Of a DNA stretch of 26,760 nt, positions 7,851 to 26,760 are shown piece after piece (the stretch's first letter is position 1; every line of letters starts with the position of its first letter). The DNA comes from a virus (taxonomy: Duplodnaviria > Caudoviricetes): positions 1 to 26,760 of the IMG/VR virus record IMGVR_UViG_3300036833_000021; one strand, written 5' to 3'. Below the pieces are notes generated by a model, which worked only from the letters and a program-made list of their open reading frames with translations, was not told the DNA's origin and made no database searches. Position numbers and translations under genes: made by a program.

Positions 7851-8393
7851 ATGAGCCAGCTCAAGATGAGCATCACCTCCTGGGGTGAGGTGGCGCTCGA
7901 CAAGAAAGAGCTGCGCGCATTGATGCGCAGCGCCGGAAACGACGTTAAAAGTAAGACCCAGCGATTGATCAACCGCAGCACCGGCAGCGGCCGCACCTAT
8001 CGCGGCGGCGGCGGGTCGGCCTATCGCGGCAACTACCGGCCGGGCGCCTATCGCGCCTCGGCGGCGGGCGAGCCGCCGGTGCGGATCTCCGGCACGCTAC
8101 ATTCATCGCTGCGAACCTACGTCTATCCGGAGGGCACCGGTTTTGCCGTGCGCGAGCGCGCGTTTTACGCTCTGTTCCTGGAAGCCGGCGCGCGCGGCGG
8201 CGGGAACCCGGGGGGAGGTGCCCGCCAACGAGTGCTCGCGCGCCGGCACCGGGCGCGTAGCGTCTTCACCTCGCGGGTGCTGCTGCCGCGGCCACATCTC
8301 GACCGCGTTATGCAACAAGAAGCGCCTAATCTGCAACACCGGGTGCGCAAGGCGTTCGATGACGGTCTGACCTGGCGGCAAACCAAGACGTGA
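7851..8393 (+). CDS. Neck/tail completion protein (HK97 gp10-like)
   Basis: Basic Arg/Gly-rich protein with SAAGEPP...SGTL..S, FYALFLEAG and PRPHL; syntenic position. Confidence 0.8.
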   Translation: MSQLKMSITSWGEVALDKKELRALMRSAGNDVKSKTQRLINRSTGSGRTYRGGGGSAYRGNYRPGAYRASAAGEPPVRISGTLHSSLRTYVYPEGTGFAVRERAFYALFLEAGARGGGNPGGGARQRVLARRHRARSVFTSRVLLPRPHLDRVMQQEAPNLQHRVRKAFDDGLTWRQTKT

Positions 8394-9088
8394 TTGTCGA
8401 CGCGACGATCCAGCAGCTGCGCACCTATTGCCCGCCGTTTGGCGGGCGGGTCGCCGGGGCCGCGGACTTTCAGCAAGGCCTGAAAAACTACAACGCCAAC
8501 ATGGCGCTGCCCGCCGCCTATGTGATCCTGCTCGACCAGGAATCGGACGGCAACCACAACATGGTCGGGCTCTACCAGTTCGTGCGCAAGACGATCGGCG
8601 TTGTCGTGGAGCTTGACGCGACAGGCGACCGCCGCGGCCAGGCGCCGGCTATGAGCACCGAGGCCATTCAGACGGCGCTAAACCTGGCGCTGCTCAACTG
8701 GCCGCCGGCTATGTGTCTGACGGTCAATCAGCAAGGCTACTGGTTCAGCGGAGGGCGCCCGCTCGATCTCGACCGCGCCCGGCTCTTCTACCAATTCGAA
8801 TTCGCGCTTAACACGGTGCTCGACGACACCGATGGCTGGCAGCCGCCATCCGTTCCGCTCGAGTCTATCGAGGTCGACATCTTCAAGGTGCCGCCGCAGG
8901 ACATGTTGGTCGACGAGCCGGCGGCGATTGTCAAGATCGCCACCTTCGGCTCGATCTGGGACGGCGGCCAATCGCTGTGGGACGGCGGCTTGACGACCTG
9001 GGATCAAACTGCCGTGGCAGGCAGTATTTGGGACGGCGATGCGACGACCTGGGACAACAATCAATCGCTCTGGGATTGGGGGATTTGA
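8390..9088 (+). CDS. Tail terminator (Mu gp37-like) with C-terminal WDGG-repeat extension
   Basis: I.QLR.YCP.FGGRVAGAADF, LPAAYVI, DRRGQ, ALLNW.P, RARLFYQFEF; GTG start overlaps the upstream stop. Confidence 0.8.
   Translation: MIVDATIQQLRTYCPPFGGRVAGAADFQQGLKNYNANMALPAAYVILLDQESDGNHNMVGLYQFVRKTIGVVVELDATGDRRGQAPAMSTEAIQTALNLALLNWPPAMCLTVNQQGYWFSGGRPLDLDRARLFYQFEFALNTVLDDTDGWQPPSVPLESIEVDIFKVPPQDMLVDEPAAIVKIATFGSIWDGGQSLWDGGLTTWDQTAVAGSIWDGDATTWDNNQSLWDWGI
8948..9085 (+). repeat. Six [ST]-x-W-D units (~7-aa period)
   Basis: SIWDGGQ SLWDGGL TTWDQTA(VAG) SIWDGDA TTWDNNQ SLWDWGI. Confidence 0.9.
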
Positions 9089-9091
9089 AAA

Positions 9092-9916
9092 ATGCCTTCG
9101 CAAATTGATCCAACCATTCCAGTTACCGGCACCCCGACTACCCAATCGGTACGCAATAACTTCGCCATCGCCGCCAACGAGATTTCAGCATTGCAGGCGA
9201 CACCTCCGGGCGGCGGCGGGGGCACACCGGGGAACCCGACCCAGACGATCGACGGCACGGTGCATCCTGGCACTGCGACGACCTACATGCGCTCGGATGC
9301 GGCGCCCGCGCTCGCTACGATCACCGGGTTGACGCCGGGCCCTTACACCAACACCAATCTGACGGTCGATGCTACGGGCCGAATTACTGTTGCCAATAAC
9401 GGCACAGCCCCTGCCGGAGCTACAGGTGCCAACCCGATCGCGCAGGTTGGTGCTACTCCGATCAACGGTACGGCGACGACCTACATGCGCTCGGACGCCG
9501 CACCGCAACTCGCCCCGATCGCGGGGGTGGCCGGCGCCTGGCAGAACGCGAACATCACCGTCGACGGGACCGGCCGGATCACCGCGGCGGCAAACGGCAT
9601 CCCAGGCGGCGCCGCCGTCGATACCGTAACACGCAATATCGCCGCAGCAGCAATCGCCCCTTGGACGGCGCTGCCCAGCGTCTTCAATGAGGTCACCACG
9701 GTTGCGGCTGTGGGTAACGGTTGTGCGCTCCCGGCCCCCGCAACAGTCGGCCAGATTTGCAAGGTCCGCAACAGCGGCGCCAACTCTTTGAACGTTTATC
9801 CGGCGGCGACTGCGGTAATCAACGCACAAGCTGCCGGCACATTTATTACCGTTCCCGTCAACACTACCGCTTATTTCGAAGCGGCGGCGGCAACTCAATG
9901 GTACACCGTGCCATGA
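9092..9916 (+). CDS. Fibre-like virion protein with an internal duplication (no signal peptide)
   Basis: N-terminal IDPTIP...TTQSVRNNF..A.NEISALQ helix, two TVD..GRIT.A.NG fibre-type repeats, and a C-terminal beta domain (LP....G....VRNSGANSLNVYP). Confidence 0.75.
   Translation: MPSQIDPTIPVTGTPTTQSVRNNFAIAANEISALQATPPGGGGGTPGNPTQTIDGTVHPGTATTYMRSDAAPALATITGLTPGPYTNTNLTVDATGRITVANNGTAPAGATGANPIAQVGATPINGTATTYMRSDAAPQLAPIAGVAGAWQNANITVDGTGRITAAANGIPGGAAVDTVTRNIAAAAIAPWTALPSVFNEVTTVAAVGNGCALPAPATVGQICKVRNSGANSLNVYPAATAVINAQAAGTFITVPVNTTAYFEAAAATQWYTVP
9269..9598 (+). repeat. Two ~45-aa repeats spaced 198 nt apart
   Basis: GTATTYMRSDAAPALATITGLTPGPYTNTNLTVDATGRITVANNG versus GTATTYMRSDAAPQLAPIAGVAGAWQNANITVDGTGRITAAANG; the DNA core GCGACGACCTACATGCGCTCGGA is identical. 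Confidence 0.9.
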
Positions 9917-10944
9917 AACTACTTGCTCTTGTTTTTGCACTATGTCTGGCGGCTGGCGCTGCCCATGCCCAGGCAGTCGCTGGACGCCCTCATCTGTTCA
10001 TGGCTACCGCTGTCGGCGGGACCGCCAATGCGCAGACCGTCACGACGGGCGGCGGGTTCGCCAATACTGCGATGGATATCGTCTGCGCCAACTTCACGAC
10101 GCCAAATACCGGAAGCGCCACGGTTGCTGTGGATGGGAAGGCCGCGCTGACCGTGCAGCGTCAGGTGCTGCCCACTGGACTTGTCAATTTGGGCGGCGGC
10201 GAGCTGACCGGTTACCAGTGTCTCCAGGTCAGCACGGCGACCCCGACGCCGACGTTTGTGCTCGGCGGCGTGACGGGCGGGATCACGGTCAATCCCGGTG
10301 CTCACCCGGTGACCGTCGCCGAGTGGACCTATGGCCAGACGTTCGTCTGCATCGCCGCGTGCAATTTGACCTTTCCTGCGGTGATTAACCTTCCTAACCA
10401 GGGCGGCGTGAACATCGCCACGGTGGGGGTGCAGGCGACATTGACGCCCGCTGCGGCCTCGGGCGATGCCATCAATGCGGGGCAGATCGGCGGCGGTGCG
10501 GCCAACACTGCGGTGACGTTTCCCGCCGATATACAGTCTTTTGTCGTTAACGGCGGGGCGAACGCGCTGAGCGTCCCAATGGGTCCGGTGCAGCCCTTCT
10601 CGTTTAGTTGGCTACCGGGGATGGATCTCAGTGTAGCGGCCAACGGTTTTGGCGTCTACCGGACGACGACGCCGCGCATCGTCTACGTCATCAGCTGCGA
10701 GAATGACGTCGTGTCGAACGCCGGCTCGATGCAGTTTTACCAGCAGACGGCGAGCGGCCTGATCGGAGCCGGGACGACGATATCGTCGTCCTTTAATATG
10801 GTGACATCGGCAGCGGGGACCGAGAGCGCGAACTTGCTGACGACTGTACCTACTGTTGTGCCGGCTAACTATTGGATCGGCGCCAAGGTCACCGGGGGAC
10901 CGATAACTGCAGGGGCGGGGCGATGCAACGGAAGCTTTCGCTAG
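9913..10944 (+). CDS. Signal-peptide protein with fibre-like domains (343 aa)
   Basis: Start re-assigned to ATG 9913 (ATGA overlap). MKLLALVFALCLAAGAAHA|Q Sec-type signal; GGTANAQTVT...NTGSATVAVDG fibre-type motif; 6 Cys in the mature part. Confidence 0.8.
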   Translation: MKLLALVFALCLAAGAAHAQAVAGRPHLFMATAVGGTANAQTVTTGGGFANTAMDIVCANFTTPNTGSATVAVDGKAALTVQRQVLPTGLVNLGGGELTGYQCLQVSTATPTPTFVLGGVTGGITVNPGAHPVTVAEWTYGQTFVCIAACNLTFPAVINLPNQGGVNIATVGVQATLTPAAASGDAINAGQIGGGAANTAVTFPADIQSFVVNGGANALSVPMGPVQPFSFSWLPGMDLSVAANGFGVYRTTTPRIVYVISCENDVVSNAGSMQFYQQTASGLIGAGTTISSSFNMVTSAAGTESANLLTTVPTVVPANYWIGAKVTGGPITAGAGRCNGSFR

Positions 10945-11114
10945 TTCTTTTGGCAGGGATGCTGCTGGTGTCGATGTCGGCTGACGCGTTCATCCTGCTG
11001 ATGCCGACCGGCGGCGCGCCGCCTGCGTGCTTCACCGCTCCGGCTACGGTTGGCAGCGGCACGGCACCTTTCAGCGTCGGAGTCGGCACGGCTCCCTTCA
11101 CGTTGTGTCCGTAA
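10923..11114 (+). CDS. Small secreted peptide (63 aa; ~41 aa mature, two Cys)
   Basis: MQRKLSLVLLAGMLLVSMSADA|FILLMPTGGAPPAC...TLCP; internal repeat VGSGTAPF / VGVGTAPF. Confidence 0.65.
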   Translation: MQRKLSLVLLAGMLLVSMSADAFILLMPTGGAPPACFTAPATVGSGTAPFSVGVGTAPFTLCP

Positions 11115-11129
11115 AGGAAAATTAATGCG

Positions 11130-11675
11130 ATGAAAAACCTGCTTACCGGATCGTTGATTGGGGCGGTGGTTGCCGCGGTTGTCGGCGGTACGGTCTGGTC
11201 GGCGACAAGCCTGATGTATCTTACCGGCGCTGTGCCCACGGTAGGACATATACTGACCTTTGCCGATACGAACGGTGGCGTAGTGGATGGCGGTCCTGCC
11301 GGGGCCGCTCCCACCCGCCCGTTCAGCCTGACGTGGGGCCCGGGGCAGAACCTGTCGGCGGCGACTCTGCCGATGGGCGTGTCGACCAATGCTGCGACGG
11401 TGGTTTCGGCTTGGTGCGCGGTCGGCGCCCTCAATGGCGCCGGTACGCTGGCTCTGTGGTATGCGGCGAGCGGGACGGCGCTGGGTAGCGGTACCCAGAT
11501 CAATGTGCCTGCACAAAACTGCAATGCTAACACCGGGGTTAACGCGACGCAGAACATGGGTGTTGGAGCTTCGCCTGCCAATGCAATCCCGGCGGGGGCT
11601 GTTTTCGGCGTGGTGGCTACCGGTTTCTCGACCACCGGCACCGGCAGCGGCGTCGTACATATCGTGCTGCAATGA
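11130..11675 (+). CDS. Signal-peptide/anchor beta-rich protein (181 aa)
   Basis: AAGGA RBS; hydrophobic N-terminus MKNLLTGSLIGAVVAAVVGGTVWS|A; TVGHILTFADTNGGVVDGG fibre-like motif; PFSLTWGPGQNLS resembles the C-domain of 9913-10944. Confidence 0.8.
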   Translation: MKNLLTGSLIGAVVAAVVGGTVWSATSLMYLTGAVPTVGHILTFADTNGGVVDGGPAGAAPTRPFSLTWGPGQNLSAATLPMGVSTNAATVVSAWCAVGALNGAGTLALWYAASGTALGSGTQINVPAQNCNANTGVNATQNMGVGASPANAIPAGAVFGVVATGFSTTGTGSGVVHIVLQ

Positions 11676-12658
11676 GACGGCTCTTCCTCTGCTGGCTGGC
11701 GCTGACCGCGGCGGTCGTCGCCGTCCTCGCGCTGGCCCCCTCTTGGCTGAGCCCTGGGCGCGCCAACATGGTCCAGATGCCGTTCACCACGGGCGGAGGG
11801 CCGCCGCCGTTCAGCAGCACCTGCGCGACGCCTGGGCCGTCCAACAATTTTATCTCTCGGGCACGCGCAGCCAACGGGGGTGCTGCACTGCCGACCACGC
11901 CGGCATACGAGACCGCTTACGACGCGATGATCTGCAAGCTCGTCGCAACCGATCCGACACCGGAATGGCCCACACTGGAAGCGTTGTGGATAATGGCGGC
12001 GCCGAACGCAGCTGTCGCCAACCTCAATCTGGTGGCCAACACCTTCCCACTGGTGCCGACCACGGCTGGCAATGCCCCGACCTTCACCGCAGGGGCGGGC
12101 TACACGGGCGTCTTGAACAGTGCAACCGTTTACATCGACACCGGGTTCATCCCGTCGTCGTCAGGCACCGGGAAGTACACGCTGAACTCGGCTCATGTGA
12201 TGGCGTGGAGCCTGACGAACCAGCAGACCAACAATTATCAACAGATGATGGGAACGCAAGATGCGTCCAACGGGACTATAATAGTTCCGTGGAGTGTTAC
12301 CAGTTTGTTCGGGCTAAATGAGGCCAACGGTGGTTTTGCGGGGATACCAGACGTCGACTCCTTGGGTTCGTATGTGGCCGTGCGCGTGGCAGTGGCGTCT
12401 CAGAGCGTCTATAGGAAGGGTACGTTTCAGTCACCCACCGATACGACCCATTCCAGCACGGCGCTGCCGACGCTTTCTTTCTACCTGCTGGCGAGCCATC
12501 CCACCGGCAGTCCGATCGGCGTTGGCCTGCAGCTTGCGGCGGCTAGCATCGGTGGATCGTTGACCGCCGCGCAGGTCAGCAGCAACAGCAACACGACCGG
12601 CACCGGACTGGTGCCGGCGGTCTGCGCGTATCTAACGACGGTGCATGGCTCATGCTGA
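11672..12658 (+). CDS. Signal-peptide protein with a probable ConA/LamG-like beta-sandwich (328 aa)
   Basis: MRRLFL + hydrophobic core + GRA|N; W..L.ALWIMAA...A.LNLV..PTFTAG.GYTG...YIDTGF.PS...ASIGGSLTAAQ recalls phage lectin-like virion proteins; 4 mature Cys. Confidence 0.75.
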   Translation: MRRLFLCWLALTAAVVAVLALAPSWLSPGRANMVQMPFTTGGGPPPFSSTCATPGPSNNFISRARAANGGAALPTTPAYETAYDAMICKLVATDPTPEWPTLEALWIMAAPNAAVANLNLVANTFPLVPTTAGNAPTFTAGAGYTGVLNSATVYIDTGFIPSSSGTGKYTLNSAHVMAWSLTNQQTNNYQQMMGTQDASNGTIIVPWSVTSLFGLNEANGGFAGIPDVDSLGSYVAVRVAVASQSVYRKGTFQSPTDTTHSSTALPTLSFYLLASHPTGSPIGVGLQLAAASIGGSLTAAQVSSNSNTTGTGLVPAVCAYLTTVHGSC

Positions 12659-13893
12659 AACTGATCGCCCTGCTGCTCCCGGTACTCGTCCTCGGGTTGC
12701 TCTTTGTCGAGGACGCGCCTGCGAGGCGCCTGCATTTTGGTGGTGGCCAAGTGGGCCTGCCGCCATTTTCGCAGGTGAATTTTGGCACCTTCAGCAAATA
12801 TGGGAATGGTCCGTGCCCGGCAACTCCCAAATGCATCAGCGGCGATACGTTTTTCAACACCTGGTCGAACGATGACAATATTTATGCCACAGCCGGCGAC
12901 GCTAGTCAGTGGAATGCTACCAGCTGCAACAATCCGTGTCAGACTGCGAACCTGCTGTTCAGCAAGCTCAGTGATTACAGCGCGTCGCTGACGGGTACAA
13001 CAACGAACGCAGGGGCTCTATGGAACGGAGGTGCGTCGACGACAGACAATGCCAACTACAAGGCGAGTGGTATAATCAGCGTCAACGGCACATTGATAGC
13101 CAGCGCCGTCCGGCAATGTCCCCAGAGTTGTCCGCAGGCGTCCATCTATACATCCGGCCAGCTGATCACATCTACCGATCAGGGCAAGACCTGGGCGCCG
13201 ACGCCGCCGGGAGGCGCTAACAATGCGCAACCTTACACATCGCCGACGTTCACCGATCCGAAATTTCGCCTGCCGTCCTTTATTCAATATGGCAAGGACG
13301 GGGGGCCGACCGCGGCGGATGGATCGGATCAGTACGTCTATGCACTGTCGTCGGATCAGAGCACTGGGCACATATCATCGCCGCCGTCGGGGGCAAATAC
13401 CGACTCGGATGCGTTCAACCTAGGCCGTGTGCTGGCGACGAAGCTCGCCGACGGATTGGCGAGCGACTGGACGTACTATCAGGGCCTCGACGGAAGCAAT
13501 CAACCGATTTGGGGTGCGCTGTCGACTACCGTGCCGGTGGTGTCGCAGCCGGGCGGTCTGTTCCAATACGGCCCCACGCCGCAGTACTTGCCGGCGTTTG
13601 GCACGTATATCATGATTACGTACGCCCCCGGTTGCTGCCCGAGCACCGCCGACTCAACATGGGACATCTGGCAGGGCGCGCACCCGTGGGGGCCGTGGAC
13701 CGTCGTGCAGCAGAGCCCTCACTGGTATAGCGGCAACCCGCAGGCAGGTGCCAACGGGTTTTATTATCCGGCGATCGTGTCGAAGTCGGTTGCAGTCGAT
13801 GGTGGTCGAACGTTCACTTTGCTGACCACCGGTGATTTTAACCAGCCCGCTACTATGTACACGATGTACATCGTGCCGGTGACGGTGCAGTGA
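12652..13893 (+). CDS. Secreted beta-propeller protein, DUF4185-like putative glycoside hydrolase (413 aa)
   Basis: Signal MLKLIALLLPVLVLGLLFVEDAPA|; GDTFFNTWSNDDNIYATAGD, Asp-box STDQGKTW, PSFIQYGKD...D.YVYA.S, HPWGPW, GFYYP; 8 Cys in four close pairs. Confidence 0.7.
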   Translation: MLKLIALLLPVLVLGLLFVEDAPARRLHFGGGQVGLPPFSQVNFGTFSKYGNGPCPATPKCISGDTFFNTWSNDDNIYATAGDASQWNATSCNNPCQTANLLFSKLSDYSASLTGTTTNAGALWNGGASTTDNANYKASGIISVNGTLIASAVRQCPQSCPQASIYTSGQLITSTDQGKTWAPTPPGGANNAQPYTSPTFTDPKFRLPSFIQYGKDGGPTAADGSDQYVYALSSDQSTGHISSPPSGANTDSDAFNLGRVLATKLADGLASDWTYYQGLDGSNQPIWGALSTTVPVVSQPGGLFQYGPTPQYLPAFGTYIMITYAPGCCPSTADSTWDIWQGAHPWGPWTVVQQSPHWYSGNPQAGANGFYYPAIVSKSVAVDGGRTFTLLTTGDFNQPATMYTMYIVPVTVQ

Positions 13894-14015
13894 TGATAAC
13901 GGCTCTTTGGCATGTCGCTCGATTGCTCCGCGCCCGGCCCGATATTTGGCGGGTGCTCGGCGTATTGCTGCTGGCTGTCCTATGGTCGGCTTTATGGATC
14001 TCGGCAAATGGATAA
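13893..14015 (+). CDS. 40-aa single-pass membrane peptide (below the ORF-track cutoff)
   Basis: Manual translation MITALWHVARLLRARPDIWRVLGVLLLAVLWSALWISANG*; TGATG overlap upstream, and its stop runs into the AAGGAG RBS of the next gene. Confidence 0.55.
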   Translation: MITALWHVARLLRARPDIWRVLGVLLLAVLWSALWISANG

Positions 14016-14216: not shown

Positions 14217-14702
14217 ATGCCATATGCCGATCCGGAGCGGCGGCGCGAGTTCAATCGCCAATGGATGATTGAATATCGCATCGCCAATCCGGAAAACTCG
14301 CGCGAATCATTGCGACGCTGGCAAGCCAAGAATCCGAAATATAGGCGTGTCCGCTATCAAACGAACGAGCAGGCACGTCTGACCGACCTTCTGCGTGCTG
14401 CGGTTCGCACCGTTATGGTCTATCGCCGCAGCAACCGAGACTGGGACCAAGACGCCAAGCTTCGCGACGTTATCGGATGTAGCAAGCGAGATTTGCGCGC
14501 GCATATCGAAGCGCAATTCCTTCCCGGTATGTCCTGGGAGAACTACGGGCGCAAGGGCTGGGAGATCGACCACGTCAAACCGTGTGCGTTGTTCGATCTG
14601 ACCGATCCAGCGCAGCAAGCGATCTGTTTCCATTATACGAACCTGCGCCCGCTTTGGCGGATCGACAACATGCGTAGACCACGAAAGGAGGTCGTTGCGT
14701 AA
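14217..14702 (+). CDS. Free-standing HNH(N) homing-type endonuclease
   Basis: IGCS...L..HIEAQF.PGMSWENYG...WEIDHVKP...FDLTDP.QQ..CFHYTNLRPLW..DN; Arg/Tyr-rich helical N-terminus. Confidence 0.88.
   Translation: MPYADPERRREFNRQWMIEYRIANPENSRESLRRWQAKNPKYRRVRYQTNEQARLTDLLRAAVRTVMVYRRSNRDWDQDAKLRDVIGCSKRDLRAHIEAQFLPGMSWENYGRKGWEIDHVKPCALFDLTDPAQQAICFHYTNLRPLWRIDNMRRPRKEVVA
14685..14692 (+). promoter_or_regulatory. Strong Shine-Dalgarno site for the sheath gene, inside the HNH 3' end
   Basis: AAGGAGGT 9 nt upstream of ATG 14702. Confidence 0.8.
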
Positions 14703-16899: not shown

Positions 16900-17030
16900 T
16901 CGCCGATCTCGCGCGGTTCTGGCATTGGGCACCGCACGACGCTTTTTCGCTGACCGGCACGCAGATCGTCTGGTGGCTCGATCAGGCCAACCGCATCATC
17001 GCCCGCGAGCGGAGTGCGGCTGAGGAATAA
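16851..17030 (+). CDS. Frameshift extension of the tail chaperone (P2 gpE'-like)
   Basis: The -1 frame reads FFIGLYRRWPGNWRDLIADLARFWHWAPHDAFSLTGTQIVWWLDQANRIIARERSAAEE*, matching the GpE' pattern AD.A..(F/W)HW.P.......W...A. Confidence 0.85.
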   Translation, partial: FFIGLYRRWPGNWRDLIADLARFWHWAPHDAFSLTGTQIVWWLDQANRIIARERSAAEE

Positions 17031-17287
17031 TGGCATATAATCCGGAGGTACAGCGCCGATATCGGTCCAGCGAGAAGGGTCTTGCCACAAGCAGGCAGCG
17101 GGATCGCGCGCGCTCAGATAATAGATTAGAGTATAAGCGCGCCTATATTGCGGCCTGGCGACATCATATCAAACCATGCCAAACATTCGATTTAACCGAT
17201 CCGGCGCAACAGGCCGAATGTTTCCATTATACTAATCTTCGGCCGCTAAGGCGGGTCGACAATCAACGCAGACCGCGCAAGGATTAA
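17030..17287 (+). pseudogene. Internally deleted HNH endonuclease paralogue (85 aa; may still be translated)
   Basis: C-terminal 41 aa are 32/41 identical to the HNH at 14217-14702, but the GCS...GMSWENYG central region is absent. Confidence 0.7.
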
Positions 17288-21123: not shown

Positions 21124-22316
21124 GCGATACCATCGACTTGCCGGATGTTTCCGTCACGGCCGACGCGCCGCACGGCGCATTGCCTCGGCAAAGCCGCCCC
21201 AGTACCCCCGATGTTTTGAGCCTGATCGTCGGCGGCCAGGAGTGGCAGGGTTGGCAGCGCGTCGCGGTCACTCGCAACATGGAGACGGTCCCCGCATCAT
21301 TCGATGTCGAGGTGACCGAGCACTATCCGACGACCGGTGATATCGCGATCAAGCCCGGTGACCCGTGCCAGGTCAAAATCGGCGGCGATCTCGTGATCAC
21401 CGGGTATGTCGACCGCTACACCGCCGCGTTCGGCCCCTATCAGCACACGGTGCGGATCGAGGGCCGCTCGAAATCGGAGGATCTCGTCGATTGCGCCGCC
21501 TTTGTCGGTTCCAAGGACAACCCGACCTATCAGATCATGGGCGGCACGACGCTGTCGATCGCCCAGCAGCTCGCCAAACCTTACGGCGTGACGATCTCGT
21601 CCACCGCCGGGGATGGCGTGCAGATCCCGCGGTTCAACATCAATCTCGGAGAAACTGCGTGGGAGATCATCGATCGGGTCACCCGCTACTCGCAGCTGAT
21701 CGCCTACGACCTGACCGACGGCTCGGTGCAGCTCTCACAGGTCGGGACCAAGAGTATGGGCTCCGGCTTCCGCCAGGGCGACAACGTCGAGCAGGCGAAC
21801 GTCATCTTCTCGATGGATCAGCGCTATTCGGTCTACGAGGGGCATCTCCTCTCGACGCAGGCGTATTTCACCGACCAGGGTGTTTCGGCGCCGGACAAGG
21901 GGACGATCGTCACCGATGATGGTGTCCCGCGCTTCCGCAAGCGGATCATCATTTCGGAGCAAATGCAGCTCGGCGAGCCGATCGTCAAACAGCGGGTGAT
22001 CTGGGAGCGCAACCGCCGCGCCGCGCGCTCGCAAGCCGTCAATGTCACCGCCGATTCGTGGCGCGACGCCAGCGGCACCCTGTGGGATATCAATCATCTG
22101 GCGCCGATCGAGCTGCCGGCGCTCAAACTGCCGCAGGCGACCTGGGTCATCGGCCAGATCACCTTCACCCGTGACGAGGCCGGGCAACACGCGCATGTCA
22201 CTCTGATGCCCAAAGAAGCCTTCATGCCCGAGCCGATCGTGCTGCAGCCGACACCGGTGCTCACCTCGGACGTCGAAAAGTACAACGCGACCAAGCCGAC
22301 GACACCGCAGCAATGA
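21120..22316 (+). CDS. Baseplate hub protein (Mu gpP/gp44-like)
   Basis: Start re-assigned to ATG 21120. L.VGG..W.GW..V.VTR, PGDPCQV.IG.DLVITGYVD, GRSK..DLVDC, V..WRD..G.LW..N, L.LMP.EAF.PEP. Confidence 0.95.
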   Translation: MSDTIDLPDVSVTADAPHGALPRQSRPSTPDVLSLIVGGQEWQGWQRVAVTRNMETVPASFDVEVTEHYPTTGDIAIKPGDPCQVKIGGDLVITGYVDRYTAAFGPYQHTVRIEGRSKSEDLVDCAAFVGSKDNPTYQIMGGTTLSIAQQLAKPYGVTISSTAGDGVQIPRFNINLGETAWEIIDRVTRYSQLIAYDLTDGSVQLSQVGTKSMGSGFRQGDNVEQANVIFSMDQRYSVYEGHLLSTQAYFTDQGVSAPDKGTIVTDDGVPRFRKRIIISEQMQLGEPIVKQRVIWERNRRAARSQAVNVTADSWRDASGTLWDINHLAPIELPALKLPQATWVIGQITFTRDEAGQHAHVTLMPKEAFMPEPIVLQPTPVLTSDVEKYNATKPTTPQQ

Positions 22317-23701
22317 GCGACACGTGGGGCTTGCAGACACAGATCGATCGCCTCTACCGCCGCATGCGGATGGTCGTGGCGCCGACGAAGATCCTGGCAA
22401 CCGACGATACCGACGTCATCCACAAGGTACAGCTGCGAGTCCAGAACACGCCTGAGATCCTCGACCAGGTCGGGGTCATGCAGATTTACGGGCTGGCCTC
22501 GCATGCCCCGGTCGGGACCGATGCGACCGCGCTTTTTGTGATGGGCGACCGGAGCAACCCGGTGGTCATCGCCACCGGCCAACAAAAGAGCCGACTGAAG
22601 AACCAGAAGCCCGGCGAGATCTCGCTCTACACCGACGAGGGCGACACGATCAAGATGCAGCGCGGCAACGCGATCGGGATCAACGGCCAGGAAAGTGCCA
22701 CGATCACGACCAAGACCGCGACGACGAATGCCTCGGACGCCTTTAACGTCGCCACAAAGACCGCGACGATCAACGGCAGTGATCAGATCAACCTGACGAC
22801 ACCGACGACCAACGTCAGCCAGGATCTGAAGGCGAACGGCAAGATCGACGCGAGCGGCGGGTTTTTTCAGAACGGCAACCCGATCGGCGGCGGTAGCGGA
22901 GGCGCCGGCCCGCCAGGGCCAGCCGGGCCAGCCGGCCCCGCGGGGCCAGCCGGACCTGCCGGACCAACGGGCACCGCCGGCAATTCGGTCCTGCACGGCA
23001 CCGGATCGCCCGCCGCCGGCATCGGCAACAGTGGCGATTTCTATATCGATACCGGTCCCTACAACATGTTCGGCCCAAAAACTACGGCATGGCCGACGCC
23101 GGGAACCTCGCTGATCGGGCCGCAAGGGTTGGCGGGCGCCACCGGCGCACAGGGGCCGCAAGGCATCCAGGGCGCCACCGGGCCGCAGGGACCGATCGGG
23201 AATACCGGGCCGCAAGGGCCGAATTGGAATGTCGGCGTAGGTTTGGCGCTCGATGCCGGGACACCCGCGACGATCCGAGTCGTAGTTCCAGCGCAATTTA
23301 ATAATCTGACCGCAGCCAATCCGACCGGCACGAGCTCGACGGCGTTTGTCATGATGGGGATGGGCTACACGATTACTCCGGCGGTCAACGGTGTGGTCGT
23401 GGTCGCAATTTCCGGACAAATCAACAATTCCGTCGCTGGCACTGTCTCGACTGTGCGTATTCATTATGGTACGGGGGCCGCGCCCGTTAATGGAGCCGCT
23501 CTAACAGGTACGCAGGCGACGCGCGGCAGTGGGATCAATACGCCGGGATACGCTGCGGGGCAGAATGTGCCGTGGTCGCTGACAGCGATCCTGAGCGGTC
23601 TTAGTGTCGGGACGCCGATTTGGATCGATCTCGCCGTAACCACCGGCAGCGGCGGAACCGCCACCATTGCCGCTATTGAAGCGGCGGCGTTCGAGATTTG
23701 A
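22313..23701 (+). CDS. Baseplate spike (Mu gp45-like) fused to collagen repeats and a C-terminal fibre-like domain
   Basis: Q.YGLASH.P.G, GDRSN.VVIAT, R......GEI.LY..EG, Thr-rich beta-helix repeats, then Gly-X-Y blocks and a beta domain. Confidence 0.9.
   Translation: MSDTWGLQTQIDRLYRRMRMVVAPTKILATDDTDVIHKVQLRVQNTPEILDQVGVMQIYGLASHAPVGTDATALFVMGDRSNPVVIATGQQKSRLKNQKPGEISLYTDEGDTIKMQRGNAIGINGQESATITTKTATTNASDAFNVATKTATINGSDQINLTTPTTNVSQDLKANGKIDASGGFFQNGNPIGGGSGGAGPPGPAGPAGPAGPAGPAGPTGTAGNSVLHGTGSPAAGIGNSGDFYIDTGPYNMFGPKTTAWPTPGTSLIGPQGLAGATGAQGPQGIQGATGPQGPIGNTGPQGPNWNVGVGLALDAGTPATIRVVVPAQFNNLTAANPTGTSSTAFVMMGMGYTITPAVNGVVVVAISGQINNSVAGTVSTVRIHYGTGAAPVNGAALTGTQATRGSGINTPGYAAGQNVPWSLTAILSGLSVGTPIWIDLAVTTGSGGTATIAAIEAAAFEI
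22907..23224 (+). repeat. Collagen-like Gly-X-Y repeats: 9 triplets (22907-22987) and 12 triplets (23117-23224)
   Basis: GPP(GPA)5GPTGTAGNS and GPQGLAGATGAQGPQGIQGATGPQGPIGNTGPQGPN. Confidence 0.92.
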
Positions 23702-23702
23702 T

Positions 23703-24407
23703 ATGGTCGGCTGGCTCGACCCGCCGCTCGACGCGCCGCCGGGGTCGTTACCGGAGAGCACCTGGGATCGCGGTGCATCGGTCTGGAATGGGGCCAGTGT
23801 ATCGATCTGGGATAGTCCCAGTGCGTCGATCTGGGATGGCGGGGCGTCGGTCTGGGATGGCGGTCGGTCGATCTGGGATCTGCCCGCGAGTCCGTTGCCG
23901 CAAGGCGGCAATGGCGGCGACATCCGCATCCTGTGGGACAACACCAACGCGCTCGGCGACTGGGGGTTGGCGCAGGGCGACCTCGAAACCGGCCAAGACC
24001 TCGAAACCGCGTGCTTGGTCTCGCTCTTCTCCGACGTGCTCGCGACTCCCGATTTTACGCCGACAGACGGCACGACCGATCGCCGCGGCTGGTGGGCCGA
24101 CCCGTACAACGACGAATCGCTGGGCTCGAACCTGTGGCAGCTCGACCGCGCCAAGAAAACCCGCGCGACGTTGGGCAACGCGCGCCGCTATGCGCTCGAC
24201 GCGCTCAACTGGCTGATCCTTGACGGTGTCGCCAAGCAAATCTTCGTCAACACATCTTGGCTCAGCCCGACCATGCTCGGCATCGCGGTCGCGATCATCA
24301 AGCCGGACGGATCGCAGACCCGCTTCATGTTCGGCTGGGCCTGGAGCGGGCTTGCGGTCGTCGCCTCACCGGTCCGGTTCGTCAATCCATTCCCGCAGCT
24401 GCCCTGA
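23703..24407 (+). CDS. Baseplate protein (Mu gp46-like) with N-terminal WDGG-repeat extension
   Basis: Start re-assigned to ATG 23703. DI.I.WD....GDW....GDL..G.DLETA.LVSLFSD, RGWWAD, GS.LW.L.R.K, YA.DAL.WL..DGVA. Confidence 0.92.
   Translation: MVGWLDPPLDAPPGSLPESTWDRGASVWNGASVSIWDSPSASIWDGGASVWDGGRSIWDLPASPLPQGGNGGDIRILWDNTNALGDWGLAQGDLETGQDLETACLVSLFSDVLATPDFTPTDGTTDRRGWWADPYNDESLGSNLWQLDRAKKTRATLGNARRYALDALNWLILDGVAKQIFVNTSWLSPTMLGIAVAIIKPDGSQTRFMFGWAWSGLAVVASPVRFVNPFPQLP
23757..23882 (+). repeat. Six S-x-W-[DN] units (7-8-aa period)
   Basis: STWDRGA SVWNGASV SIWDSPSA SIWDGGA SVWDGGR SIWDL. Confidence 0.9.
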
Positions 24408-26152: not shown

Positions 26153-26338
26153 ATGCTGCAACCGACTGACGAATTGACGGTGCGCATGACTGCGGCCGAA
26201 TGGAACCAAATCCTGGCCGTGCTCAGCGAAGGTGCTTACCGGATCGTGGCACCCCTGATCATCAAGATCCGCGACCAGGGCATGGCGCAGGATCAGCGGC
26301 CGGCCAACAGCGAAGACGCCGCGCATGTTCCGCATTGA
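26153..26338 (+). CDS. Small helical hypothetical protein (tail-fibre associated)
   Basis: GGAGGG RBS; EWNQILAVL...Y..VAPLI.KI..Q amphipathic pattern; overlaps the fibre start. Confidence 0.7.
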   Translation: MLQPTDELTVRMTAAEWNQILAVLSEGAYRIVAPLIIKIRDQGMAQDQRPANSEDAAHVPH

Positions 26339-26760
26339 CAACACCAGCGCGGTCACTTCGCTACCGATCATTCCGCCGACCGGCATACCGGGGTTTTTCA
26401 CTAACGGCAACCCGACGCTCGGAATACAGGCGACAATCGTCGATGCCTGGTGGGCCAACATGCTGCAGGAGGAGATTCTCGCCGTCGTCAATGCGGCCGC
26501 GATCACCCCCAGCAAGACCGACAACGGGCAGCTGCTCAAGGCGCTGCATTCGATCTTTGCGACGGCGGGTCTCTATCTGCCGCTAGCGGGCGGCACGATG
26601 ACCGGGTTTCCGCTGCTGCTGGCGCGCGATCCGGTGCTGAATATGGAGGCGGCGACACGCCAGTTCGTGCTGGCTCAGCTCGGAGTAGGACAGACCGGGT
26701 TTCTGCCGCTGACCGGCGGCACGCTCCACAATCCGGGCCTCAGTGATCCGCTGGTGATCC
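26325..26760 (+). CDS. Tail fibre protein, Mu gpS-like N-terminus (runs off the window; not in the ORF track)
   Basis: Manual translation MFRIDNTSAVTSLP...GFFTNGNPTLGIQATIVDAWWANMLQEEILAVVNAAAITPSKTDNGQLLKAL...YLPLAGGTMTG...AATRQFV...FLPLTGGTL; no stop before the window end. Confidence 0.92.
   Translation, partial: MFRIDNTSAVTSLPIIPPTGIPGFFTNGNPTLGIQATIVDAWWANMLQEEILAVVNAAAITPSKTDNGQLLKALHSIFATAGLYLPLAGGTMTGFPLLLARDPVLNMEAATRQFVLAQLGVGQTGFLPLTGGTLHNPGLSDPLVI

Follow-up and report, generated by a model that had tools for sequence, protein, structure and literature searches.

The window analysed here is a stretch of 26,760 bases that makes up an entire viral record (IMGVR_UViG_3300036833_000021), that of a soil phage. 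On its + strand, between the tail terminator gene gp37 and gp38, lies a cassette that consists of a leaderless fibre gene (A), five genes with N-terminal export leaders (B to F) and a gene for a small peptide (G). Sequence evidence makes it very likely that the products of B to F are exported and disulfide-bonded. We further propose, as the reading favoured on balance, that the cassette specifies an optional branched neck appendage, in which A would be the cytoplasmic base and the exported, oxidised hub and heads would be added at lysis. A preliminary description of this DNA had already proposed exported, disulfide-folded appendages. Its export and cysteine pairing are borne out by A-x-A cleavage sites and cysteine co-variation; that the exported proteins join the virion at lysis is what we infer, as moderately probable. 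The system is real, widespread and apparently undescribed.

The features in question are listed below, with arrows at the predicted leader cleavage sites.

8948..9088, + strand: Trp-Asp repeat tail of six W-D units at the C-terminus of the tail terminator gp37 (gene 8390-9088), from a PF23840 match and the sequence
9092..9916, + strand: gene A, leaderless fibre of 274 amino acids (aa), from an alignment of six homologs
9913..10944, + strand: gene B, general secretory (Sec)-type leader (AHA↓Q) and three beta domains with six conserved Cys, from a model and alignments
10923..11114, + strand: gene C, leader (ADA↓F), then a mature peptide of 42 aa that has two Cys and a hydrophobic tag at its N-terminus
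11130..11675, + strand: gene D, leader, short fibre motif and a swappable tip, here a B-type jelly roll (C96/C131)
11672..12658, + strand: gene E, leader (GRA↓N), N-terminal tag, Gly linker and a swappable cargo domain without a Pfam family
12652..13893, + strand: gene F, leader (APA↓R), basic tag and a candidate DUF4185/GH183-like glycoside hydrolase with eight Cys
13890..14015, + strand: gene G, 41-aa hydrophobic peptide from a GTG start, coupled to F

The five leader genes were found on the + strand with the cleavage motifs that the preliminary description had quoted, the exact site of D being ambiguous (VWS↓A or a neighbouring site). The mature chains of B, C, D, E and F contain 6, 2, 2, 4 and 8 Cys, the even counts given before. 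The cassette had also been described as coupled into the late operon without a promoter or terminator of its own, and this view holds. From gp37 through A to G to gp38, the intergenic gaps are +3, -4, -22, +15, -4, -7, -4 and +13. A sigma-70 consensus scan, which does not cover other promoter types, detected no + strand promoter or terminator at either cassette border; five promoter-like sites (shuffles 2.6 +/- 1.6) and seven terminator-like sites (shuffles 6.6 +/- 2.6) were counted. The 40-aa membrane peptide of the earlier account exists as the hydrophobic product of G, and it is not a conserved part of related cassettes. G therefore was rejected as the membrane anchor of the cassette, and it is probably not part of the module.

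Leaders were flagged with a signal-peptide heuristic, which flagged only 1 of 809 distinct core virion proteins. In clusters at 50% identity from GC-rich loci, the even, odd and zero Cys counts were 23:5:3 in flagged and 90:141:170 in unflagged proteins (Fisher p 2.4e-5), and the Cys density was threefold higher in the former; the flagged set keeps about five false positives, and the loci are related rather than independent. The Cys and Trp-Asp counts exclude AT-rich loci (GC below 0.55), 12 of which were re-read with a simple open reading frame finder. An even count alone is not diagnostic, because the leaderless A also holds two Cys.

Among six B homologs, identity to B of the window was 62% in the h-region, 92% in the cleavage region and 95% in the first mature residues, a profile as expected for a cleaved leader. 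A profile search collected 99 clusters at 50% identity, of which 72 were flagged with a leader. The mature chains of these 72 have a non-zero even number of Cys in 67 cases, an odd number in two and none in three; four carry a classical fibre docking motif (strict pattern) behind the leader. By our own reading, the 27 unflagged clusters comprise 23 that start mid-domain, two missed leaders and two complete leaderless fibres with odd Cys numbers. Gene callers start B itself at an internal ATG and lose the leader (our own caller; database entry P0012, 314 aa). Judged from the alignment, the cysteines of B are gained and lost in pairs. C58 and C103 are both present in 22 and both absent in 16 of 40 distant rows, with two discordant rows (38/40 concordant), and the partner of C262, itself present in 58 of 61 rows, alternates between positions of about 294 (32 rows) and 338 (26 rows).

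In the E family, 13 of 17 members were flagged (11 with even, two with odd Cys numbers); two complete leaderless members have no Cys, and two are fragments. Leaderless versions of cassette domains, one of them in the same slot, are mostly without Cys. Two F variants (L083:12876-14168 and L084:12551-13810) fill the slot of the Sec-type, eight-Cys F with twin-arginine (Tat-type) leaders, and contain five and one Cys, respectively. Tat substrates fold in the cytoplasm. Thus, Cys pairing follows the export route. Taken together, the predicted export and disulfide formation of B to F are well supported because of the conserved A-x-A sites, the Cys co-variation, the Cys-poor leaderless homologs and the Tat variants.

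The domains of B point to a virion-part ancestry. A model of B from 61 sequences reached a predicted local distance difference test (pLDDT) value of 92.1, and its three domains are predicted to have tail-fibre (aa 28-118), spike/XD-like (119-224) and cement-like jelly-roll (tip, 218-343) folds. The first domain matched the Pa193 tail fibre (Z 8.2, 27% identity); the second matched the Pa223 capsid spike (Z 10.7) and, over B aa 119-224, aa 79-180 of the CBA120 tailspike protein TSP4 (Z 8.0, root-mean-square deviation 2.8, 90 residues), a middling score for a beta-sandwich. The tip matched the KHP40 cement protein (Z 9.9) and the C-terminus of the 7-7-1 tail fibre (Z 8.8). All of the seven best solved-structure matches of the model were virion parts, with moderate scores. 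The fibre-like character noted in the preliminary description is in agreement with these predicted folds. A first model from seven sequences had a pLDDT of 43.7, and only its confident N-terminal domain was used: the Foldseek viral matches of this domain were fibre proteins, and no PDB match was obtained at E 0.001. No significant match to PDB sequences came from profile searches with B or A, and searches against Pfam and PHROGs assigned no significant family to A to G. An Atlas lead for B ('Dec protein', score 0.86) fell below the reliable range and was not used.

The tip of D is homologous to that of B (BLASTP E 2e-08), and the Atlas neighbours of D are small tailed-phage proteins (feature score 0.93-0.94, TM 0.79). 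A is composed of an N-terminal anchor (aa 1-37), a variable shaft and a C-terminal knob (aa about 172-274), whose homologs occur in many phage fibres, among them those of large AT-rich phages. The slot of the cassette is occupied in L130, a prophage on a contig of a Xanthobacteraceae metagenome-assembled genome (MAG), by a leaderless protein without Cys that joins the anchor of A, a collagen shaft and a B/D-type tip; the next gene encodes a leaderless homolog (E about 1e-14, four Cys) of an E-slot cargo. Another protein, P0129, for which no viral locus was found, has a leader, the anchor of A and domains 1-2 of B in one chain. Both the B model and this leaderless fibre, which shares slot, anchor and tip with the cassette, support a virion-part ancestry of the domains.

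Gene content indicates that the window is a phage contig with an HK97 head and a Mu-like tail: terminases, portal, protease, an HK97-type capsid and connector genes are followed by genes of a Mu-like contractile tail. No lysis or integration genes were identified within the 26,760 bases. Since the closest host-linked sheath (76% identity) lies on a Xanthobacteraceae MAG contig, the host is likely a Gram-negative alphaproteobacterium. An ordinary leaderless Mu-type tail fibre gene begins at 26325 (26325-26760, cut by the contig end). Thus, the cassette comes on top of a normal fibre.

A viral database search for leader clusters in the neck slot had been suggested as a check. The B search detected seven viral loci, and B-C-D-E-F are kept in all of them as far as the contig extends. 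A lies directly upstream of B in the six loci with upstream DNA (6/6), and C follows B in 7/7; L157 likewise has a similar small gene behind a distant member of the B family. The cassette is carried by a Mu-like myovirus, by DUF3383-sheath myoviruses (as tested with Pfam on L085) and by podovirus-like phages (SU10 adaptor, PHROG 9953 capsid). By these assignments, the same gene order is found in the virion gene blocks of unrelated virion types. We also examined the gp37-sheath slot in 49 distinct Mu-like loci. It holds no gene of at least 100 aa in 37, leaderless fibres in 10 (eight called by pattern, two by eye) and leader-bearing cassettes in two. Thus, it is an accessory-fibre slot.

Distant B-family genes stand among other flagged genes in L136, L155, L156 and L157, with capsid genes nearby in L136 and L155; two L157 genes tested had no PHROG match. 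Scans of genome and metagenome contigs with the B alignment gave no relative. Some further observations were made on these loci. L157:7763-15387 contains nine consecutive leader-flagged genes; one of them encodes a B-family protein, and after it comes the gene of a C-like peptide that carries an E-like tag. In L047:1259-2226, L058, L064:3087-7190 and L051:9375-9758, the gp37-gp38 slot is filled by another leader-bearing cassette, unrelated to the first, which encodes a tailspike-like 1042-aa protein with 18 Cys and two small proteins. The product of L091:3908-4609, on a podovirus-like cassette contig, has a leader and, at its C-terminus, a PEP-CTERM motif. Among the sequencing runs listed for this DNA there was no RNA run; in the one DNA run, the likely source of the window, summed contig depth was 22-40 over A to D (window 9402-11303) and about 14 elsewhere, which is in line with other phages in the same sample sharing these genes.

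The Trp-Asp tail of gp37 is a candidate docking site for A. Such a tail is present on the gene directly upstream of 13 of 26 distinct anchor genes, compared with 12 of 1329 other genes (p 6e-18). An anchor gene comes next after 7 of 11 gp37 homologs with the tail and 5 of 39 without it; of the four tailed homologs lacking an anchor call, three are followed by a variant anchor missed by the profile. The gene slot and the tail point to the tail terminator as the place of attachment, and gp46 has such repeats too. They occur in the gp46-like baseplate gene of the window at 23703-24407. In relatives, the tail occurs as a fusion on head-closure, gp48-like or small podovirus genes that immediately precede an anchor gene. 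Genes of 54-95 aa that encode almost nothing but the anchor of A were seen at L019:1422, L021:8974, L036:1938 and L135:20072. A second candidate contact lies within the cassette. There are three D tip types, each paired with its own E leader/tag in 8/8 cassettes, and the N-terminal part of D and the cargo of E are shuffled while the D tip and the E tag travel together.

For the heads, the predicted activities concern glycans. A lectin-like role of the E cargo is suggested by a weak Laminin_G_3 match in a slot-mate. F is a predicted GH183-like glycosidase candidate. PF13810 was detected in 7 of 26 F homologs, one of which, P0034 (39% identical over 91% of F), is above the curated cut-off; F itself had no PF13810 match in the Pfam search. 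Its residues D65 and D83, near the N-terminus, are invariant in 20/20 aligned sequences. Other cargos of the F slot are glycosidase-, esterase- or carbohydrate-binding-like, by weak GH43, GDSL and CBM_4_9 matches.

The sequence itself shows that the genes are coupled in an operon, that the leaders are conserved, that Cys residues co-vary, that modules are shuffled and that leaderless, Cys-poor equivalents occupy the same slot. To account for these observations, we propose the following mechanism. A would be made in the cytoplasm, and its N-terminal anchor would bind the Trp-Asp tail of the tail terminator. B to F would pass through Sec (Tat in the two F variants) and be cleaved and oxidised. 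When the inner membrane fails at lysis, B would dock on the knob of A, and C, D, E and F would then attach via short N-terminal tags that bind tip domains. The resulting appendage would display swappable glycan-binding and glycan-cutting heads, by which the particle could adhere to, or get through, polysaccharide of the soil or the host. With export, secreted bacterial domains that depend on disulfides and fold badly in the cytoplasm would become available to the phage. More generally, and tentatively, though as a serious possibility, we suggest that many soil phages share a portable hook-and-tag kit: a Trp-Asp tail fusable to any virion protein, a cytoplasmic anchor fibre, and a Sec/Tat-exported, periplasm-folded hub with plug-in lectin and glycosidase heads that snap on at lysis via short N-terminal tags. 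If so, the kit would be a phage counterpart of the cellulosome, assembled across two compartments.

Two other explanations fit these results poorly. One takes the cassette for an ordinary moron, which would lie in the tail operon by chance and be transcribed on its own, as a lysogenic-conversion unit for envelope proteins. The cassette is indeed optional and mobile, its GC content at fourfold sites is lower than that of the core genes (0.74 vs 0.86), and relatives were found in MAG contigs, one of them inside a 1.16 Mb contig. However, this explanation is weakened by the ATGA-type translational coupling from gp37 through G to gp38 and by the borders free of promoters and terminators in the consensus scan, and the domains are of virion type. 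Moreover, the B profile found matches in 11 of 401 genomes from the order to which the L130 host belongs; among the 10 matches listed, none was leader-flagged and eight had no Cys in the match. We regard it as very improbable. The other explanation, that the N-terminal hydrophobic stretches are uncleaved anchors or assembly helices, that the proteins stay cytoplasmic or tethered and that the disulfides form after lysis, is just as hard to credit. Disulfide formation after lysis may also occur in Cys-rich virions such as Milano. Extracts of the reports on Milano and 7-7-1 (PMC10491603, PMC12796354) describe both virions as heavily disulfide-linked, so that virion disulfides need not imply export, and the Cys pair of the leaderless A would suit the same explanation. 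In contrast, the rise of identity from the h-region to the cleavage region of B, the recurrence of leaders in 72 of 99 diverse clusters and the existence of twin-arginine variants do not fit uncleaved stretches, and Cys pairs travel with leaders, not with domains.

A possible but rather unlikely alternative is that B to F are exported late and work off the particle, either in a branched complex of enzymes and lectins that lysis sets free or on the infected-cell surface, with A alone as a virion fibre; the roles would be loosening of biofilm or capsule, or a decoy. The leaders send the proteins away from the site of assembly, the F-slot cargos (weak matches; DUF4185) would suit such roles, and extracts of a survey state that 5% of soil prophage CAZymes (carbohydrate-active enzymes) have signal peptides (PMC13507307). 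This alternative leaves unexplained the position of A before B in 6/6 loci across virion types, the use of the slot for leaderless fibres that share anchor and tip, and the anchor of P0129 behind a leader. Furthermore, no lipoprotein tether was seen, because the mature chains of B to F all begin with a residue other than Cys.

Several points weigh against the neck appendage that we favour. The presence of B to F in particles is so far a prediction, and the leaders were flagged by our own heuristic, not by SignalP. Z values of 8-11 for beta-sandwiches indicate fold, not function. Half of the anchor genes (13/26) lack a Trp-Asp tail directly upstream, and both the tail-anchor and the tip-tag co-variation may reflect linkage alone because adjacent DNA is involved. 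The dataset numbers of the seven closest cassettes lie close together, and these cassettes may come from one campaign. No cultured INPHARED phage carries B, E or F: tblastn against its 50,697 phage records gave no match for these and three weak records for A. The knob of A is also present in large phages, and the 12 loci inspected there had no leader-bearing neighbour. The more distant relatives of F resemble ordinary secreted bacterial enzymes. Finally, the Bdellovibrio MATs are, by extracts of PMC10769870, phage-like leader-bearing fibres that serve the cell and not the virion, a precedent for the off-particle alternative.

Other genes of the window deserve mention. The insertion between gp38 and the sheath gene (14217-14702) is an endonuclease VII-like gene (PHROG 1035), of which a shorter remnant, similar in its C-terminal stretch, is seen ahead of the tape measure gene (17030-17287); in relatives, the endonuclease gene sits at several different positions. 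The baseplate spike gp45 (22313-23701) reaches 462 aa through a collagen stretch and an extra C-terminal domain, while most relatives have about 175 aa. Between the terminase subunits, a 94-aa beta-rich gene without a family (532-816) is also kept in L083.

Assembly of tailed phages is taken to be cytoplasmic. If the appendage is matured in the periplasm, it would represent a second assembly compartment for tailed phages, virion composition would depend on the Sec/Tat and Dsb systems of the host, and secreted glycosidases of soil viromes that are classed as auxiliary metabolic genes would in some cases be virion parts. The locus offers testable specifics, namely the candidate docking site on the tail terminator, the cytoplasmic adaptor, the hub and the short tags. 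Even under the off-particle alternative, the locus would still stand for an exported complex, widespread and modular, that is made of virion parts. The class may be overlooked because gene callers drop leaders. We found no description of exported virion-protein assembly for tailed phages in a literature search outside which lay most subscription papers and all supplements, where SignalP tables could bear on the question. Term searches in extracts of the phiCbK, Jabs, 7-7-1 proteomics and Circe papers gave no signal-peptide virion protein.

Known systems share single aspects with the cassette; the papers concerned are cited from extracts. PBSX XepA (PMC6834076) is encoded by an optional gene in a late operon, and its C-terminal jelly roll weakly matches the tip of B (Z 7.2). 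It is listed there as non-classically secreted, whereas B to F have classical leaders and no promoter or terminator of their own was found in our scan. The DUF4185/GH183 endo-D-arabinanases (PMC10115798) are related through the F homologs with PF13810. D170 and D188 are the catalytic residues of the characterised GH183 enzyme DgGH4185b (PMC10115798), and D65 and D83 of F, also 18 residues apart, may be their equivalents, judged by spacing alone; unlike these enzymes, F itself is below Pfam detection. The Agrobacterium phages Milano and 7-7-1 (PMC10491603, PMC12796354) resemble the window as alphaproteobacterial-type myoviruses with Cys pairs in appendage-like proteins. In these phages, core capsid, collar and sheath are crosslinked and the extracts mention no signal peptides, whereas here the Cys pairs concentrate in leader-bearing accessory proteins.

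Tailspike proteins are cytoplasmic and not known to carry leaders. The branched tailspikes of Ackermannviridae, as described for CBA120 TSP4 in extracts of PMC8825819, have an anchor, a hub with XD domains and swappable glycan-active heads joined by their N-terminal parts, an arrangement that the cassette may share. Here, in contrast, the predicted hub and heads bear leaders and Cys pairs, and the cassette occupies a neck gene slot, moves between myo- and podovirus-like phages and is known from genes alone. The Bdellovibrio MAT fibres (PMC10769870) share phage-fibre-like character, signal peptides, mosaic tips and, in some, disulfides. MATs are, according to the extracts, adhesins of a bacterial predator with a conserved 130-aa domain after the leader and often an S74 chaperone, whereas the cassette is phage-encoded and lies in virion operons; no S74 Pfam match was obtained in the cassette proteins searched. 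By analogy, and with membership of either group not established, the cassette would resemble the Bdellovibrio MAT fibres in its export and the TSP4 complex in its architecture.

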